Assembly (NCBI GenBank): GCA_965243135.1 | Contig: OZ251539.1 | Location: forward strand, 2,689,812-2,753,811 | Origin: Alphaproteobacteria bacterium | GTDB taxonomy: Bacteria > Pseudomonadota > Alphaproteobacteria > MPNO01 > UBA830 | Direction: 5' to 3' | Length of the DNA stretch: 64,000 nucleotides | Shown here: in pieces, positions 3,363-44,243 of the stretch | Position numbering within the stretch: the first letter of the stretch is position 1 | Layout of the letters: each line of letters starts with the position of its first letter | The notes under the pieces: model-generated | Database searches by the model: none | The model's input: only the letters and a program-made list of their open reading frames with translations | What the model was told of the DNA's origin: nothing | Made by a program: the position numbers and the translations under genes

Positions 3363-4612
3363 GCCGACCGTTCGCGCCGGAGCGCTTCGGCGGCCTTCCA
3401 TGCCCGCTCCCAGCCGTTCGCCGGCGCTATCGTATCGATCGCCGCCGGGCCCTTTTCGCCGTTCGGCGGCGGCGGCCCGTCGCCGAGCGCCCGGATCAGC
3501 CTGCGGCGGTAGGCGGCGATGCCCTTGTCCGAAGCGCCGAGATGTTCCTTCGTGCGGTCGTAAATCGGTCCGGGAGCCTCGACCGCCCACTGGTCGTGAA
3601 CGTTGATGTCGAAGCCCATGCCCGTAAAGGTGCGCTCCCGCTGTTCTTCGGGATCGAATCCGTATTCGTTGGACCGGTTCTTGCGGGACCGGTAATCGGG
3701 AAGCGTGTAAAGTTCCAGCCGTTGGGCGCGCATGAGGTCGCGTTTCACTTCGGTCTCGAACGCCGTGAAGATCGCGTACCACCAGCAATGCGTATCGTCG
3801 ACGGGAACATGCCATTGGGTGATGTTCATGTCGTTCGACATGGGAATGACGATGGCGTTGGGGAACAATTGGTTCGTGACGCGCACGTGCAACCGCCCGT
3901 CGCCGATTCTGCGGAGCGCGGTCAATCGGAGGCCGTAGCCGGTATCGTCCACGCGGATTTCGGGGCAGGGATGCTCCCGCAGGAGCCGGGTGACCGGAAC
4001 GTCTTCCGTTTCGTCGCCGAACTGCCGACCGTAGTCCTCTTCCCGATCCTCGAAGAAACGGTGGAGAAACGAGGCATGCGCGGGATCGATTCCCACTTCC
4101 AGGGCCTGCAACCAGTTGCACTCCATGAAGCCCTTGAAGGCGAAGGCGAACGCTTCGGGCGCGGCGAAGCAGTCGAACTCCGGGAGTTCGGGCGGGTCGC
4201 CGTTCCCGAGCCAGGCGAACACGATTCCGTTGCGCTCGACGCAGGGGTAGGCGACATGTCGGATTTTTTCCCGGAATCGGCTGCCCGGCGGTTCGGCCGG
4301 CTGCTCCAAGCACCGGCCTGCGGAATCGAACAGCCAGCCGTGGAACGTGCAGCGCAATCCTCCGTCCTCGAGTCGGCCGTAGCGGAGGTCTGCGCCCCGG
4401 TGCGGGCATCGCCGGCCGACCAGGGCGCATTCGCCGGCTTCGTCGCGGAAGAGGACCAGATCCTCGCCCATAAGCCGCACCGGCTTCACCGGGCGGTCGC
4501 CATCCAGTTCCTCGGTCAACGCCGCCGGTTGCCAGTAGCCGCGCATGAGCGAACCGCAGGCCGTTCCCGGCCCCGTTCGGGTCACCAGTTCGTTGTCTGC
4601 CTTGCTAAGCAT
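3344..4612 (-). CDS. Rieske (2Fe-2S) aromatic-ring-hydroxylating oxygenase, alpha-subunit type
   Basis: Full 422-aa ORF with the Rieske motif CPHRGADL...CTFHGW near the N-terminus and a mononuclear-iron type C-terminal domain. Confidence 0.85.
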   Translation of the reverse strand: MLSKADNELVTRTGPGTACGSLMRGYWQPAALTEELDGDRPVKPVRLMGEDLVLFRDEAGECALVGRRCPHRGADLRYGRLEDGGLRCTFHGWLFDSAGRCLEQPAEPPGSRFREKIRHVAYPCVERNGIVFAWLGNGDPPELPEFDCFAAPEAFAFAFKGFMECNWLQALEVGIDPAHASFLHRFFEDREEDYGRQFGDETEDVPVTRLLREHPCPEIRVDDTGYGLRLTALRRIGDGRLHVRVTNQLFPNAIVIPMSNDMNITQWHVPVDDTHCWWYAIFTAFETEVKRDLMRAQRLELYTLPDYRSRKNRSNEYGFDPEEQRERTFTGMGFDINVHDQWAVEAPGPIYDRTKEHLGASDKGIAAYRRRLIRALGDGPPPPNGEKGPAAIDTIAPANGWERAWKAAEALRRERSAWAAPL

Positions 4613-5100
4613 TCGGGGATTCTAACTGCATACCTCGCCGGATCCAATCCGAGGCGTCCGCGCCTCGCGATTTTCGCCGGGCCGCCCGTCTCGCCGCGCC
4701 GCTGGTCCGAACGCGGTCGCGCCGTCTTGGGAAAGCGCCCGCAGGCGACCGCCTGTTCGACCTTTTCCGCCAATCTTGCGAGCCGTTCGCTTGCGAGGAG
4801 CGCGAACAGGCGGCTGCGGGGAGAGTTCAGGCTTTTCCGGGAGGATTCGCGCCACATCGCCGCGTCGTCCGCAGCCATCGGGCCGCGGCTGCGGGATTTC
4901 AAGCGCGAATCCGAGCGGCGCGGCGAAACGGAAACGGTCGCAGAAGTCGAGATACTCCGTCCGGTCCGCGCGAATATCCTCGACAGCGCTCTTGACCTCG
5001 ACGATCATGAACTCGCCCTCCAGCCCCGAGACGTCACCGCGGCGGCCGTTGGGCGCTCGGTCGGCGTTCCCGGTCCGCGGCGCCGAGCGCGACGAGGGAC
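4582..5100 (-). pseudogene. MmcB-family DNA repair protein remnant (N-terminally truncated, one frameshift)
   Basis: Reading upstream of the ATG at 5008 gives NGRRGDVSGLEGEF-MIVEVKSAVEDIRADRTEYLDFCDRFRFAAP, which is the MmcB core pattern. The C-terminal part (GPMAADDAAMWRESSRKSLNSPRSRLFALLASERLARL) is in another frame (track ORF 4582..4902). No in-frame start exists upstream before the yciI-like gene. Confidence 0.45.
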
Positions 5101-5129
5101 GTGGTTTCGGACGCCGGCCCGGCGAGCGG

Positions 5130-5444
5130 TCAATCGCCCTCCGCGGTGGCGGGCGCCGCCGCCGGATTCCATTGTCCGCGCCGCATTCGCGAAATAACGT
5201 ATCGGCTGAACAATCCGGCCTTGCGGAACGGTTCGTCCGCTGCGAACGCGTCGGCGGCGGCGCGAGACGGGACGTTGACGATCAACAGGCTTCCCGTCCG
5301 CGCGTCGCTGTCGTCGGCAAGCGTCGCGCCGCCCAGGACGAGGATATCCTCGTGCCTGGCGAGATAGTCGAAATGAGCTTGCCGGTTTTCTGCGCGAATG
5401 CGGTTGGCGTCGGGCCCGTCGACGCCATGGATCACGTAAAGCAC
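5130..5444 (-). CDS. YciI family protein
   Basis: 104-aa ORF: MLYVIHGVDGPDANRIRAENRQAHFDYL...GSLLIVNVPSRAAADAFAADEPFRKAGLF. Size and pattern are typical of YciI-like proteins. Confidence 0.8.
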   Translation of the reverse strand: MLYVIHGVDGPDANRIRAENRQAHFDYLARHEDILVLGGATLADDSDARTGSLLIVNVPSRAAADAFAADEPFRKAGLFSRYVISRMRRGQWNPAAAPATAEGD

Positions 5445-5462
5445 GCCGCATCTCCGGGCGCT

Positions 5463-6464
5463 TCAGGCGCCGCGCATGAGCTTCAGGATCTCGGTGGCGG
5501 GAATGCCGTTCTCTTGCCATTCGGCCACGACTTCCCGTTCGAGCTTGGCAAGCATCGACAGCGCCTTGCGCACCTCCGCGTCCGGAAGCCTGACGAGATT
5601 GTGGGCGTCTGAGGCGGCCAGAAAGGCCATGCCCTTGGCGTGTTCGGCATCGTAAATTTTTCCTCCGGTCTCGCCCCAGTTGCTGCCGACCGACTTCTCG
5701 ATGATGTCGCGATGCGCCGGCGACAGCTCGTTCCAGCTTTGCTTGTTCATCACGATGAACATGGGCGAGGAGCCGAACGGGATCCCGCTCGCGAAGTGAC
5801 GGGTCACTTCCTTGATCTTGAAAGTGTGCAGAACCGTCGGGGAGACGAGCACGCCGTCCACGGTTCCCCGGGCGAGGGCGTTGTAGAGCTTGGTGATCGG
5901 CATGGGCACCGGCACGGCGCCGAGGGCCTTGATCGACCGCGCAGACATCTGCGAGGGAGTGCGGAGCTTGAGGCCCTTGAGATCGGCGACCGTCTTGATC
6001 GGCTTGTTCCTGGTCATGATGATCGGCGGATCGATAGCCCAAAGCGCCAGCACCTTGACCTGTTCGTATTCCTTGCGGAGCGCGGGGGACTGGGCGTAGG
6101 CCGCGTTGAGGCGGCGGGTGCCGTCCTGCGCGCTGCCCATGACGTTGGAAAGTTCCACCAGGGTCGTGGCCCGGAACAGTTTCGAAGTGTAGCCCTGCAG
6201 GCCGAAAGAGATGTCGGCGACGCGGTCGAGCGCGCGCTTGAACTGCTTGGCCGGGCCCTTGCCCAGCTTGCCGGCCACGAACAGCTTCACCTGAAGACCG
6301 GCGTTCATCGCGTTGATGTCTTTCGCCCACGGCGAAATCATGCGCGCGTTTACAGGGTGCTTCGGTCCGGTAAACGACGCGACTTTGAGTTCCGCGGCAT
6401 CTGCCTGAGGCACTGCGAGCAGGCCGACTGCCGCGGTCAGAACGAGAGAAGTGCGCTTCATCAT
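5463..6464 (-). CDS. TRAP transporter substrate-binding protein (DctP family)
   Basis: Start MMKRTSLVLTAAVGLLAVPQADA (signal peptide) at 6464, preceded by AGGAGG. The body is DctP-like. It lies adjacent to the DctM and DctQ genes. Confidence 0.85.
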   Translation of the reverse strand: MMKRTSLVLTAAVGLLAVPQADAAELKVASFTGPKHPVNARMISPWAKDINAMNAGLQVKLFVAGKLGKGPAKQFKRALDRVADISFGLQGYTSKLFRATTLVELSNVMGSAQDGTRRLNAAYAQSPALRKEYEQVKVLALWAIDPPIIMTRNKPIKTVADLKGLKLRTPSQMSARSIKALGAVPVPMPITKLYNALARGTVDGVLVSPTVLHTFKIKEVTRHFASGIPFGSSPMFIVMNKQSWNELSPAHRDIIEKSVGSNWGETGGKIYDAEHAKGMAFLAASDAHNLVRLPDAEVRKALSMLAKLEREVVAEWQENGIPATEILKLMRGA

Positions 6465-41103: not shown

Positions 41104-41323
41104 TTCAATGCGCGCCGTTCGAACCCGGAAAGGTTATGTCGCGCGCGGCGCAAGGTTCGGGTGCACCGCACTCAGAGTCGCATGCTGCCGGGCGGACATG
41201 CTTTCGTACTGACTTCAATGCGCGCCGTTCGAACCCGGAAAGGTTATGTCGCGCGCGGCGCAAGGTTCGGGTGCACCGCACTCAGAGTCGCATGCTGCCG
41301 GGCGGACATGCTTTCGTACTGAC
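41104..41323. repeat. perfect 110-bp tandem duplication (2 copies)
   Basis: 41104..41213 and 41214..41323 read identically (ttcaatgcgcgccgttcgaacccggaaaggttatgtcgcgcgcggcgcaagg...ctttcgtactgac). The region is intergenic. Confidence 0.9.
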
Positions 41324-41543
41324 GGTCGGCCGTCCGCACGGCCCTCGCGGACTTGTCGGCGGACGGAGTGCCGGTCGCCGAGCGGACGGCAAAGAATCGG
41401 CGCGGCGCGAACGCTTCTCGCTTCGGCGGCGACGGTCTTTTCCATGTCGTGATATCGAGCGAATCGTCGGCAGCGATTCTTCCGGCGGGTCTCGGGTAAG
41501 AATCCCAACTCCGCGGCCGAGCGTTTTCGCGGGTCCGCCCGCT

Positions 41544-41912
41544 TCAGCGGCGCTTGTCGAAAAACGCGAAAAGTTCCTCGGAGGTCCGACTGACGGCGAC
41601 GTGGGCCGTCGCTTCCTGAAACCGTTCGGGGTCGACGATGCCGTCGAGCATGGATTTCAAGCGTTCTCCCGCTTCGTCGCCGAACCGTTCGGCCGCAAGC
41701 CTGGCCATGAGTTCGCGGTTCAAAGCCATGGACGCCTCGGCCCTTGCGTCGGACGCCTCGGCTCTTGCGTCGAACGCCTCGGCCCTTTCCACGGCCGCGT
41801 CGGCTCTTGCGTCGGCCGCAAGCGCCCTTTCCACGGCCGCATCGTAATGTTGAGCGAATCCGGTCATCGATCCTTCAAGTGCAGTCTCTGGCAAGAAGTT
41901 CCACGGCCCCAA
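41544..41912 (-). CDS. free-standing copy (C) of the Rpn C-terminal helical module
   Basis: 122-aa ORF (TTG start). An internal ATG (MTGFAQHYD) at 41867 has GAAGGA upstream. It ends ...ERLKSMLDGIVDPERFQEATAHVAVSRTSEELFAFFDKRR, nearly identical to the C-terminus of the 42241..43740 protein. Confidence 0.5.
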   Translation of the reverse strand: MGPWNFLPETALEGSMTGFAQHYDAAVERALAADARADAAVERAEAFDARAEASDARAEASMALNRELMARLAAERFGDEAGERLKSMLDGIVDPERFQEATAHVAVSRTSEELFAFFDKRR

Positions 41913-41923
41913 AATCGCCCGCT

Positions 41924-42229
41924 TCAGCGGCGCTTGTCGAAAAACGCGAAAAGTTCATCGGAGGTCAGACTGTCGGCGACATGCGCCGTCGCTTCCTGAA
42001 ATCGTTCGGGGTCGACGATGCCGTCGAGCATGGATTTCAAGCGTTCTCCCGCTTCGGCGCCGAACCTTTCGGCCGCAAGCTTGGCCACGAGTTCGCGGCT
42101 CAAAGCCACGGCCGCGTCGGCCCTCGCGTCGGACGCAAGCGCCCTTTCCACGGCCGCATCGTAATGTTGAGCGAATCCGGTCATCGATCCTTCAAGTGCA
42201 GTCTCTGGCAAGAAGTTCCACGGCCCCAA
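41924..42229 (-). CDS. free-standing copy (B) of the Rpn C-terminal helical module
   Basis: 101-aa ORF (TTG start; internal ATG at 42184 with GAAGGA upstream). The last 40 aa differ from the parent C-terminus by one residue (M for V). Confidence 0.5.
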   Translation of the reverse strand: MGPWNFLPETALEGSMTGFAQHYDAAVERALASDARADAAVALSRELVAKLAAERFGAEAGERLKSMLDGIVDPERFQEATAHVADSLTSDELFAFFDKRR

Positions 42230-42240
42230 AATCGCCCGCT

Positions 42241-43740
42241 TCAGCGGCGCTTGTCGAAAAACGCGAAAAGTTCATCGGAGGTCAGACTGTCGGCGACATG
42301 CGCCGTCGCTTCCTGAAATCGTTCGGGGTCGACGATGCCGTCGAGCACGGATTTCAAGCGTTCTCCCGCTTCGGTGCCGAACCTTTCGGCCGCTAGCTTG
42401 GCCACGAGTTCGCGGTTCAAAGCCATGGACGCCTCGGCCCTCGCGTCGGACGCCTCGGCCCTCGCGTCGGACGCAAGTGCCCTTTCCACGGCCGCATCGT
42501 AATGTTGAGCGAATCCGGTCATCAGTATCGATCCTTCAAGTGCAGTCTCAGGGAACCATTCTGACCCGAGCGCCGTCATTGTCAACAGAAGATGGCGCAA
42601 CGGTTCGTCCACCGGCAGAAGCCTGTCAAGCTCCTCGCAGGCGCGCAACGTGTCGGCGGGGTCGCCTTGATGCAGCCGGAAATAAGCCGCCGCGGGATTG
42701 TCTTGGTACGCGGAATAGTCCATCCGTTGGACGTCGTGCACCACATACCGCGCCGGCGTTCTGTAGGGCTCGAGGAAGGCATGCTTCGGCGGAGCTATCA
42801 GCCTTTCCGCGTCGTCGGCTGCATTCCAGGCGTCGGCTCCCGTGTGGACGACGACCGGAACGGTGAACGGAACCCGGTCGTCGGCATCCAGGAGATCCTT
42901 GTGGTTCCGTCGGATGGTTCTTGTGAGTTCGATCCGGTAGGACGCCATCCGTTCCGCCATAGCGCGGTCGACAGCGGATTGGAACTCGACGATGAAGGAA
43001 AGCGGCTCTGAGTCCTGCGGTTCGAGGACCAAGATCATATCGCTGCGGAGGGCACGGCTGAGCGAGTGGGACACGAGTTCCCCGTCGATGCGTCGAATGG
43101 CCGCGTCTTCCGGCACCAGATCGGCCGGCAGGACAGTCCGCAGCAGGCCCCGCGCCATTACGGGATACCCGAAAACGAACCGGGCTATCGCGTCGTGCGG
43201 ATAACGTCCCGGCCTGCCCAGCATCCGCAGCGGGGTCCGGTCTCGCGGGTCCTTGAGAGCAGGGTTCCCGCCGCATCCGACCAAAGCGACGAACGCGGCG
43301 TAGTTCTCGTTGCGGGCGGCGTAGTGAAGCGGCGAGAACCCCCGATTGTCCGCGGCGTCGAGACCGGCGCCCGCCGCGGCCAGAGCCTCGATGGCGGCCG
43401 CATTCCCGTCGCGGGCAGCGTAGTGAAGCGCCGTTCGCCCGTTCCGGTCCCCGGCGTCGAGGCCGGCGCCCGCCGCGGCCAGAGCCTCGATGGCGGCCGC
43501 GTTCCCGTAGCGAGCGGCGTAGTGAAGCGCCGTTCGCCCGTTCCGGTCCCCGGCGTCGAGGCCGGCGCCCGCCGCGGCCAAGGAAGCGATGTGCGCCGCG
43601 CCCTTTTTCGGGACCCTGGCGGCGTAATGGAGAAGGGTCCGGCCCTTTCGGTCTTTCGGGTTGTTGTGCCGACGGAACAATTCGACGATGAATTCTGGGG
43701 ACCCCGTCCTGACGGCGGCGGCGAGCTGTCGTTTCTTCAT
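42241..43740 (-). CDS. ankyrin-repeat protein fused to an Rpn-family (YhgA-like, PD-(D/E)XK) recombination-promoting nuclease/putative transposase
   Basis: Start MKKRQLAAAV at 43740. About four ankyrin repeats (GRTLLHYAAR..., GRTALHYAARYGNAAAIEALAAAGAGLDA x2, GFSPLHYAARNEN). The Rpn core follows: HDAIARFVFGYP...LRSDMILVLE...SFIVEFQSAVDRAMAERMASY...VPVVVHTGADAW...YVVHDVQRMD, then a helical C-terminus. Confidence 0.75.
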   Translation of the reverse strand: MKKRQLAAAVRTGSPEFIVELFRRHNNPKDRKGRTLLHYAARVPKKGAAHIASLAAAGAGLDAGDRNGRTALHYAARYGNAAAIEALAAAGAGLDAGDRNGRTALHYAARDGNAAAIEALAAAGAGLDAADNRGFSPLHYAARNENYAAFVALVGCGGNPALKDPRDRTPLRMLGRPGRYPHDAIARFVFGYPVMARGLLRTVLPADLVPEDAAIRRIDGELVSHSLSRALRSDMILVLEPQDSEPLSFIVEFQSAVDRAMAERMASYRIELTRTIRRNHKDLLDADDRVPFTVPVVVHTGADAWNAADDAERLIAPPKHAFLEPYRTPARYVVHDVQRMDYSAYQDNPAAAYFRLHQGDPADTLRACEELDRLLPVDEPLRHLLLTMTALGSEWFPETALEGSILMTGFAQHYDAAVERALASDARAEASDARAEASMALNRELVAKLAAERFGTEAGERLKSVLDGIVDPERFQEATAHVADSLTSDELFAFFDKRR

Positions 43741-44243
43741 TCTTCCGATCCCTGCTTGCGACTGTCGTGCGCTCAATGTTTCCGAACTCCGTTTCCGCCC
43801 CTGAGAAGCGGACCGCGGACCGCCGCCGAGGCGCGGCCCGCAGGCTTCGTCGCAGCCGAACGCCGGACATCGTCCGTCCGGCAAGGCTGCGGCTGCGTTC
43901 GCCTTAATGCCATGAAACGGCGGAACCGTCAAGGGGGAAATTCGCCGACGAAGCATCGAGGGTTCGGCGGCGCCGGAAGACGCGTTCCGGCATTCCCGGC
44001 GGTTCCGACGACGACGGATTCTTTCGAAGCGCGCTGGCGTCCCGCGAAAATCCCGCGTTCCCGCCGTTCGGGTCGTCTCCGCTCGCCCTTCGGAGACGCT
44101 TGCCTGGACGCCGCGCAGCCGGCCTGAACCGGAAAGATCGTCCGGCGCCCTGACGCCGCGACCGCGTTCCGCAGGCTTGACAGCCGTTTCCAGGGGGCGT
44201 AAACGTCGGGCCGACGAGGGCCCAATTTTTCGAGATCCGCAAG

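Follow-up and report, generated by a model that had tools for sequence, protein, structure and literature searches.

A probable Rpn toxin/intragenic-antitoxin locus with an ankyrin-bearing nuclease and a recombining array of tail genes in an alphaproteobacterium

In Escherichia coli Rpn nucleases, the variable C-terminal tail is also translated alone from an internal start, giving a small protein, RpnS, that neutralises the toxic full-length nuclease, RpnL, by binding to it (Zhong et al., 2023, PMC10400941). The long first helix of RpnS contains repeats of 4 amino acids (aa), variable in number and beginning 8-20 residues after the Met, and one extra repeat in RpnCS abolishes neutralisation of RpnCL unless RpnCL has an equal extra repeat. 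It was also reported that a plasmid-borne Rpn protects from phage and that free-standing downstream copies of the tail exist, the RpnSs, namely ypaA after rpnE and rpnCSs after rpnC, which cluster with their own parents; the ypaA product has been detected in E. coli, and DUF4351 is the family label of annotated free-standing RpnS proteins (PMC10400941). Here we describe a locus in a stretch of 64,000 nucleotides (nt) of contig OZ251539.1 from an alphaproteobacterium (this whole stretch is called the window), in which a gene that fuses ankyrin repeats to an Rpn-type nuclease, termed the parent, is followed by tandem free-standing copies of its own tail. With a probability of roughly 0.7, we read it as an Rpn toxin/intragenic-antitoxin locus of the RpnL-RpnS-RpnSs kind, with an ankyrin-bearing nuclease and a recombining tail array, whose expression and function we infer. 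The locus had been picked out in an earlier reading of the window (the original prediction), whose account of the sequence is confirmed, and the internal-start antitoxin and the phage defence described there for E. coli agree with Zhong et al. (2023, PMC10400941).

The parent resembles E. coli RpnL/RpnS (RpnA-E, RpnP2) in having a PF04754 core whose catalytic residues are conserved, a tail that contains an internal Shine-Dalgarno (SD) motif and ATG in frame, a variable short repeat that starts 8-20 aa after the Met in what is predicted to be a long first helix, and a promoter-like site inside the gene, 5' of the internal start. It differs from them in its N-terminal ankyrin domain, in a repeat unit of 7 aa (21 nt) instead of 4 aa (12 nt), in a tail that has no detectable similarity to that of RpnA and in the replacement of the PDDE motif by QDNP. 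Like the RpnSs, the copies are small same-strand open reading frames (ORFs) directly downstream of the parent and most similar to their own parent's tail (94-98%), and distant relatives of their module reach PF14261 (DUF4351). Unlike the RpnSs, for which a single copy is shown after rpnE and rpnC, they form arrays of two to three tandem copies, and the window's array ends in a decayed unit; the repeat number of every copy differs from that of the parent; the spacers across arrays measure 56-112 nt, whereas ypaA starts 12 nt downstream of rpnE; and there is no direct PF14261 match. Tandem direct duplication, as opposed to transposition, is shared with the tandem arrays described for complete rpn genes (Zhong et al., 2023, supplementary information (SI) Fig. 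S1B as cited), but in this family the tail module alone is amplified, not the nuclease gene. The original prediction was right that separate, amplified ORFs are present; the release of the tail as a separate gene, which it had proposed, is already described for the RpnSs. What is new is the ankyrin fusion, the arrays of two to three RpnSs and a 7-residue variable repeat with lengths unlike the parent's.

The ankyrin-Rpn parent gene and its tail

All parts of the parent and of its copies lie on the minus strand, and coordinates are those of the window unless a related locus is named. The parent, the RpnL equivalent, occupies 42241-43740 and encodes 499 aa, as defined by its ORF, its MKKRQL start and its Ank and PF04754 matches. 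The longest version of the ORF extends to 43956; the shorter one was chosen because the MKKRQL Met is the start in all homologues and matches that ATG. The ankyrin-Rpn fusion that had been proposed was borne out in both halves. The ankyrin domain (aa 1-175, 43216-43740) consists of an N-cap and four repeats, matches Pfam Ank_2 at 2.9e-25 and was modelled by AlphaFold2 as paired helices with pLDDT >90, while the YhgA/Rpn PD-(D/E)XK nuclease core (aa 181-344, 42709-43200) matches PF04754 (Transposase_31, YhgA-like) in Pfam with 45.3 bits (cut-off 21, E = 9.8e-12). Residues D183, D234, E252 and Q254 of the parent align with D11, D63, E82 and Q84 of E. coli RpnA, mutation of which abolishes RpnA activity (PMC5350276); among 21 aligned family members, the three acidic core residues are invariant and Q254 is nearly so. 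The PDDE(I) motif of the second half of the Rpn domain is absent from the parent, where the aligned residues are QDNP. This motif is identical among the E. coli K-12 paralogues, and the hyperactivity of the D165A mutant indicates that it is not catalytic (PMC5350276). A tblastn search against plasmids gave matches solely to genes annotated 'Rpn family recombination-promoting nuclease'. By these matches the parent is identified as an Rpn-type PD-(D/E)XK nuclease that retains all four RpnA catalytic residues, and endonuclease activity and toxicity are predicted for it.

Other searches added little: when the PDB was searched by sequence, the parent, the parent less its ankyrin repeats and the profile of the tail returned ankyrin or chance matches only, PADLOC matched the ankyrin part of the locus and nothing else, and tblastn against a phage library gave no match. 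Identity as a transposase or insertion sequence (IS) was rejected, given that no inverted repeats surround the gene and that a transposase role for Rpn proteins has been argued against in the literature.

We found no publication that describes an ankyrin-Rpn fusion, and the text of Zhong et al. (2023, PMC10400941) makes no mention of ankyrin. As an added protein-binding domain, the ankyrin part may be the missing sensor of the Rpn system. In the window it is larger than in relatives: 66 aa, equivalent to two ankyrin repeats, are extra in the parent and fall in a gap in all 19 ankyrin-bearing homologues of the alignment. A 99-nt tandem repeat lies in this part of the gene (43348-43580; TRF period 99, 2.4 copies, 95% matches; repeat families D4/D5), and because its copies match at 95% the two additional repeats are a recent expansion by way of this repeat.

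The tail from the internal ATG, equivalent to RpnS, covers 42241-42522 and would give a protein of 93 aa. The internal Met is conserved almost without exception across the 21 aligned homologues. A GAAGGA motif of SD type is located 9 nt 5' of this ATG (42532-42537), and the ALEG peptide, whose codons constitute a GAAGG-type SD motif 8-11 nt upstream in all parents examined, is conserved before the Met. At the level of sequence the parent has an in-frame internal start with a ribosome-binding site, and translation from it is predicted. A sigma-70-like match, TTGACA-16-CAGAAT, is also present inside the parent at 42558-42585, just 5' of the internal start and outside the duplicated unit, and an equivalent site exists in the related locus L001; one such site was found against 0.4 expected, and it is a consensus match only and is confounded with coding constraint.

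The tail carries 21-nt (7-aa, ASDARAE) repeats at 42427-42483, detected by TRF with period 21. Within the family this variable repeat starts about 13-17 residues past the internal Met and its number ranges from 0 to 7, so that MTGFA-type tails counted from the Met have 72+7n residues. The MTGFA-type tails of parents measure 72, 93, 100, 114 and 121 aa, and those of 28 free-standing proteins 72, 79, 86, 93, 100, 107 or 114 aa, with a single exception of 99 aa. Two parents, P0007 and P0008, have a divergent MAGFA-type tail of 103 aa, outside the 72+7n series. AlphaFold2 models the tail as one long helix and then three short helices (pLDDT 76), and in the full-length model it predicts a 50-residue helix, H405-454.

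A profile of the tail, searched against 1.84 billion representatives, found 40 proteins, DUF4351-type proteins among them: the PF14261 scores of P0139, P0140 and P0146 are 24-26 bits (cut-off 25), and the PF04754 protein P0155 ends in the same tail module. Because the profile finds these four proteins, and because hhalign of the profile against P0139, which reaches the PF14261 cut-off, gives 96% probability, the tail can be regarded as a divergent DUF4351-like module, with a link to PF14261 that is transitive.

Several of these distant relatives (P0138, P0140, P0143 and P0144, and also P0139, P0142 and P0145) carry two to three in-frame tandem DUF4351-like modules, each after EGREQG-type 4-aa repeats. 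This arrangement suggests that RpnS-like modules are amplified in tandem in further lineages as well, there fused within one ORF.

The tail array in the window and its relatives

Downstream of the parent, its last 93 codons and the preceding 30 nt recur twice, head to tail, and TRF reports a period of 317 at 41789-42453 (2.1 copies, 97% matches, score 1260), in line with the two further repetitions of the tail that had been claimed. The first of them, copy B (41924-42184), is an RpnSs-like gene of 86 aa from its ATG and equals protein P0106; the second, copy A (41544-41867), also RpnSs-like, has 107 aa from its ATG and is identical to protein P0101. The open frames of 101 and 122 aa originally given for copies B and A were recovered when counted from the TTG codons at 42229 and 41912, respectively, and the common ending that had been pointed out, FAFFDKRR-stop, is found in both. 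Each copy is preceded by a spacer of 56 nt, spacer 1 at 42185-42240 and spacer 2 at 41868-41923, and the two spacers are 100% identical, confirming the shared junction described before. The last 30 nt of spacer 1 stem from parent coding sequence, and GAAGGA precedes each ATG, at 42188-42193 in spacer 1 and at 41871-41876 in spacer 2. The array closes with a decayed terminal unit at about 41437-41543, recognised in an alignment of ~100 nt, in which a longer version of the spacer is followed by a tail start (FLPET..FARYHD) that is out of frame; this is the degenerate fourth copy of the original prediction.

Ignoring gaps, the parent tail is 97.9% identical to copy B and 94.4% to copy A, and the two copies are 95.2% identical to each other. 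The differences in length among the window's tails are all multiples of 21 nt within the 7-aa repeat, barring one 6-nt deletion. Copy A contains its 21-nt repeats at 41730-41844 (TRF periods 21 and 42), five heptads in the 72+7n count.

Proteins P0101 and P0106 are both recorded on one NCBI contig of 6.1 Mb. The same contig encodes at least two further ankyrin-Rpn paralogues, P0005 (121-aa tail) and P0008 (103-aa tail), and at least three more free-standing tails, P0108 (114 aa), P0121 (72 aa) and P0125 (80 aa), with P0132 (72 aa) also listed. Together with the window's own, the source genome holds at least three parents (tail lengths of 93, 121 and 103 aa).

With the parent as query, about 20 ankyrin-Rpn proteins of 41-72% identity were found, all in ENA, NCBI or Logan assemblies of uncultured alphaproteobacteria, and copy A as query returned 26 free-standing proteins of 61-146 aa. 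Scans of a genome-contig collection, with single-protein and alignment queries, and of JGI metagenomes yielded no relative. Nearly all the free-standing proteins begin at MTGFAQHYD or no more than two residues off, P0112 being N-terminally extended and P0126 N-terminally truncated. A full-length parent gene was present in six loci, in four of which two to three intact tail genes follow. In the window the parent is intact with a tail of 93 aa, and free-standing tails of 86 and 107 aa are followed by the remnant. In L001 an intact parent (tail of 100 aa) precedes free-standing tails of 79, 86 and 93 aa and then a remnant; in L002 an intact parent (114 aa) precedes tails of 86 and 93 aa; and in L005 a parent of full length but frameshifted (86 aa) precedes tails of 93 and 107 aa. 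The parents of L003 and L004, both intact with tails of 93 aa, have no free-standing tails. Free-standing tails are likewise absent from L006, a locus of a second clade with an intact parent and a different tail of 132 aa, and from L007, which holds only a 5'-truncated parent remnant with a tail of 100 aa.

Within each of the four arrays the tail lengths are all distinct, and no free-standing copy equals its parent's. Equal lengths would be the natural expectation for copies otherwise 94-100% identical, and the all-distinct pattern is suggestive. The tail cores of L002 and L005 differ by a synonymous difference (pS) of 0.04, yet their lengths differ throughout (114/86/93 versus 86/93/107), and because such closely related loci differ at every position, the repeat number appears to turn over fast.

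The contexts of the related loci vary. CobS of the window shares 94% identity with a protein of the L002 contig, and the nearest named relative is a Rhodospirillaceae metagenome-assembled genome at 84%, which places the host among the uncultured alphaproteobacteria. The frameshift of the L005 parent (4300-5516) is near codon 85-91; L007 (5893-6303) retains the last ~140 parent codons only, beside transposase genes; and in L004 (6250-7170) a phage-integrase gene overlaps the parent's end. Toxin-antitoxin (TA), AbiE, IS and integrase genes surround L002 and L004. By these surroundings L004, L005 and L007 are placed in mobile, IS-rich contexts, unlike the window.

Two further observations concern the flanks of the array. 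Between the MetE-like gene and the array's decayed end, a perfect 110-bp tandem duplication (41104-41323) consists of two 100% identical copies; it matches no Rfam family, its folding energy is not unusual, and it does not recur elsewhere in the window or in the related loci. On the other side, 43809-43928, 5' of the parent, is 72% identical over 124 nt to positions 4843-4960 of L001, 5' of the L001 parent, and this shared upstream region may be a common promoter or leader.

History of the array

Spacer and parent are homologous from TTCCC.GAGAC onwards, 30 nt ahead of the ATG, so that the ribosome-binding site travelled with each unit. Copy B equals copy A at an upstream substitution, at the 6-nt deletion and at several core sites, and equals the parent at the other informative sites, including the whole last 140 nt. 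This patchwork indicates repeated gene conversion or unequal exchange and not a single clean duplication. The three inner spacers of L001 match at 100%, whereas its terminal spacer matches at 82% and leads into a decayed tail start; this terminal remnant, at about 7450-7590 of L001, is homologous to the window's decayed unit. The remnants of the window and L001 are both closer to L003/L004-type parent sequence (ccgaagccgcgc.ggaag) than to the current tails of their own loci. Because the two remnants resemble each other, the array predates the divergence of the loci, its inner units being homogenised with the parent while the end units escape and decay. The serial duplication first proposed is too simple for this array, which is old and homogenised by recombination. 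Patchwork copies and decayed ends also qualify the published conclusion that each parent gave rise to its downstream copies independently, since concerted evolution gives the same clustering of copies with parents.

Function of the free-standing tails and alternative explanations

In the reading that we favour, the parent would be a PD-(D/E)XK DNA endonuclease with an N-terminal ankyrin domain, and its last 93 residues would also be made alone from the internal SD and ATG, to which the internal promoter-like site may contribute. By analogy with E. coli, the helical tail protein would bind the same tail of RpnL through the long first helix and hold the nuclease inactive, until a trigger (a phage factor or changed conditions) releases it. 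As the sequences show, unequal homologous recombination between tails has produced the tandem free-standing tail genes, two in the window and then a decayed unit; each has retained ~30 nt in front of it, ribosome-binding site included, and gene conversion keeps the array parent-like. The 21-nt repeat in the predicted first helix changes its copy number rapidly, so that every copy in a locus differs. No promoter-like site was found inside the units, and no terminator-like site between them on the coding strand where the window and L002 were scanned; the scan of L001 gave only a 5-bp stem within each tail's coding sequence. Because the units have no promoter-like site of their own, they would depend on read-through from the parent or on its internal promoter, and co-transcription with the parent or transcription from that promoter is probable.

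The change in toxin:antitoxin dosage that the original prediction drew from the copies is doubtful: their repeat numbers never match the parent's, in the window or in three related loci, and the SD motif is set at only 3 nt from the ATG in the window. Because a repeat mismatch abolishes neutralisation in E. coli and no copy matches its parent, by that analogy the free-standing copies are unlikely to be a simple extra dose of antitoxin. Nevertheless, a heptad insertion keeps the coiled-coil register and a 4-aa insertion does not, and the E. coli rule may not transfer. Three alternatives remain for the copies, namely pairing variants for paralogous RpnL proteins of the same genome, a reservoir for new parent tails, and by-products. 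Within the favoured reading the copies would more likely be alternative pairing variants than an extra dose, and they could buffer other, paralogous RpnL proteins or serve as a stock of ready-made tails for recombination into the parent.

A number of observations weigh against this reading. The NCBIfam Rpn subfamily TIGR01784 scores 24 bits against the parent, under its cut-off of 52.1. Fold searches with the tail model yield generic helical bundles only, and hhalign of the tail profile with the E. coli RpnA tail shows no detectable similarity. The domain searches that had been proposed matched Ank and PF04754 in the parent, but the expected DUF4351 match failed to appear in the tails, PF14261 being unmatched at E <= 10 in all 26. 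The locus is situated between a MetE-like gene and rpmB-cobT-cobS, that is, among housekeeping genes and not in a defence island. The ATG with GAAGGA that had been described for each copy is there, but the two are separated by 3 nt in copies A and B, compared with 9 nt in the parent, as the 6 nt ATACTG (codons Ile-Leu) between the parent's GAAGGA and ATG are missing from both copies. A 3-nt spacing is unfavourable for SD-led initiation; a spacing of 9-10 nt is kept in all units of L001, L002 and L005. When the tail lengths of the arrays were compared with random draws from the pooled lengths, 'all lengths distinct' gave a permutation P = 0.055, which is marginal. Finally, the copies are young (pS 0.02-0.10), which makes the absence of frameshifts weak evidence, and their intactness could be passive, the result of gene conversion from a parent tail under selection.

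These last points lead to the rival explanation that survives best, in which the extra tails are neutral by-products of unequal crossing-over at a repeat-rich 3' end, young and overwritten from the parent. The low divergence between copies, their patchwork structure, the poor SD-ATG spacing in the window, the lack of promoter-like sites in the units and the absence of an array from L003 and L004, two among the six loci whose parent gene is full length, all fit with it, as do the other recent tandem duplications in the window, that is, the 110-bp perfect repeat and the 99-nt ankyrin repeat. We still hold it to be unlikely. Arrays recur in four loci whose tails differ by pS of about 0.3-0.5, and all nine complete units in these loci are intact, each keeping ATG, stop and SD-like motif, even in L002 and L005, where the sequence upstream of the units is unrelated to the parent coding sequence and yet has GGAAAGGGGA 10 nt from the ATG. 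By comparison, the truncated terminal units have decayed. Nonsynonymous changes are under neutral expectation, with pN/pS of 0.3-0.6 between loci and about 0.5 within loci, and the product of the analogous ypaA is made in E. coli.

A bolder proposal goes beyond the favoured reading and sees in the array a diversification device: recombination, possibly stimulated by the Rpn nuclease itself, would shuffle heptad-ladder cassettes and reset a length-coded lock between toxin and antitoxin, thereby escaping phage mimics or insulating paralogues from each other, with the ankyrin domain sensing a phage or host protein. We put this forward as a speculation with a low chance of being correct.

Lower still we rank the array as a store of silent or weakly expressed cassettes, from which recombination would move a tail with another repeat number into the parent and so change the L-S pairing code of the toxin and of its intragenic antitoxin together. 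Silent-cassette variation is known from the pilE/pilS loci of Neisseria, which this locus resembles in that an expressed gene is followed by partial copies, with conserved flanks around a variable block and evidence of gene conversion. On both sides the heptad block adjoins conserved sequence that the units have in common (about 80 nt on its 5' side and about 175 nt on its 3' side in every unit), the copies are patchworks of each other, and the change of repeat number at every position between L002 and L005 would also follow from such a store. However, slippage in the 21-nt repeats alone could alter repeat number, and no direct tail swap has been reconstructed. Unlike pilS, the copies keep start signals and full frames, and their variable block differs in repeat number, not in sequence; a silent cassette would have no need of the SD and ATG retained in every unit.

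That one tail was mis-assembled as several can practically be dismissed: 317-380-nt tandem repeats of 94-98% identity can indeed be mis-assembled from short reads, but 6-17 substitutions and in-frame 21-nt blocks separate the copies, the source sequence is one contig of 6.1 Mb, and the same architecture appears independently in related contigs (those of L001, L002 and L005 bear 'ptg' names, which suggest hifiasm long-read assembly, the read type being unchecked).

Rpn systems are widespread, and this family may help to explain what triggers them and why the repeat number of their tails varies. If the locus is an Rpn toxin/intragenic-antitoxin system with a recombining tail array, as we favour, the family provides a natural test, beyond E. 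coli, of repeat number as a pairing code and of any role of mismatched copies and of an added ankyrin domain, with a toxin tail placed beside two to three tails that differ from it by whole heptads.

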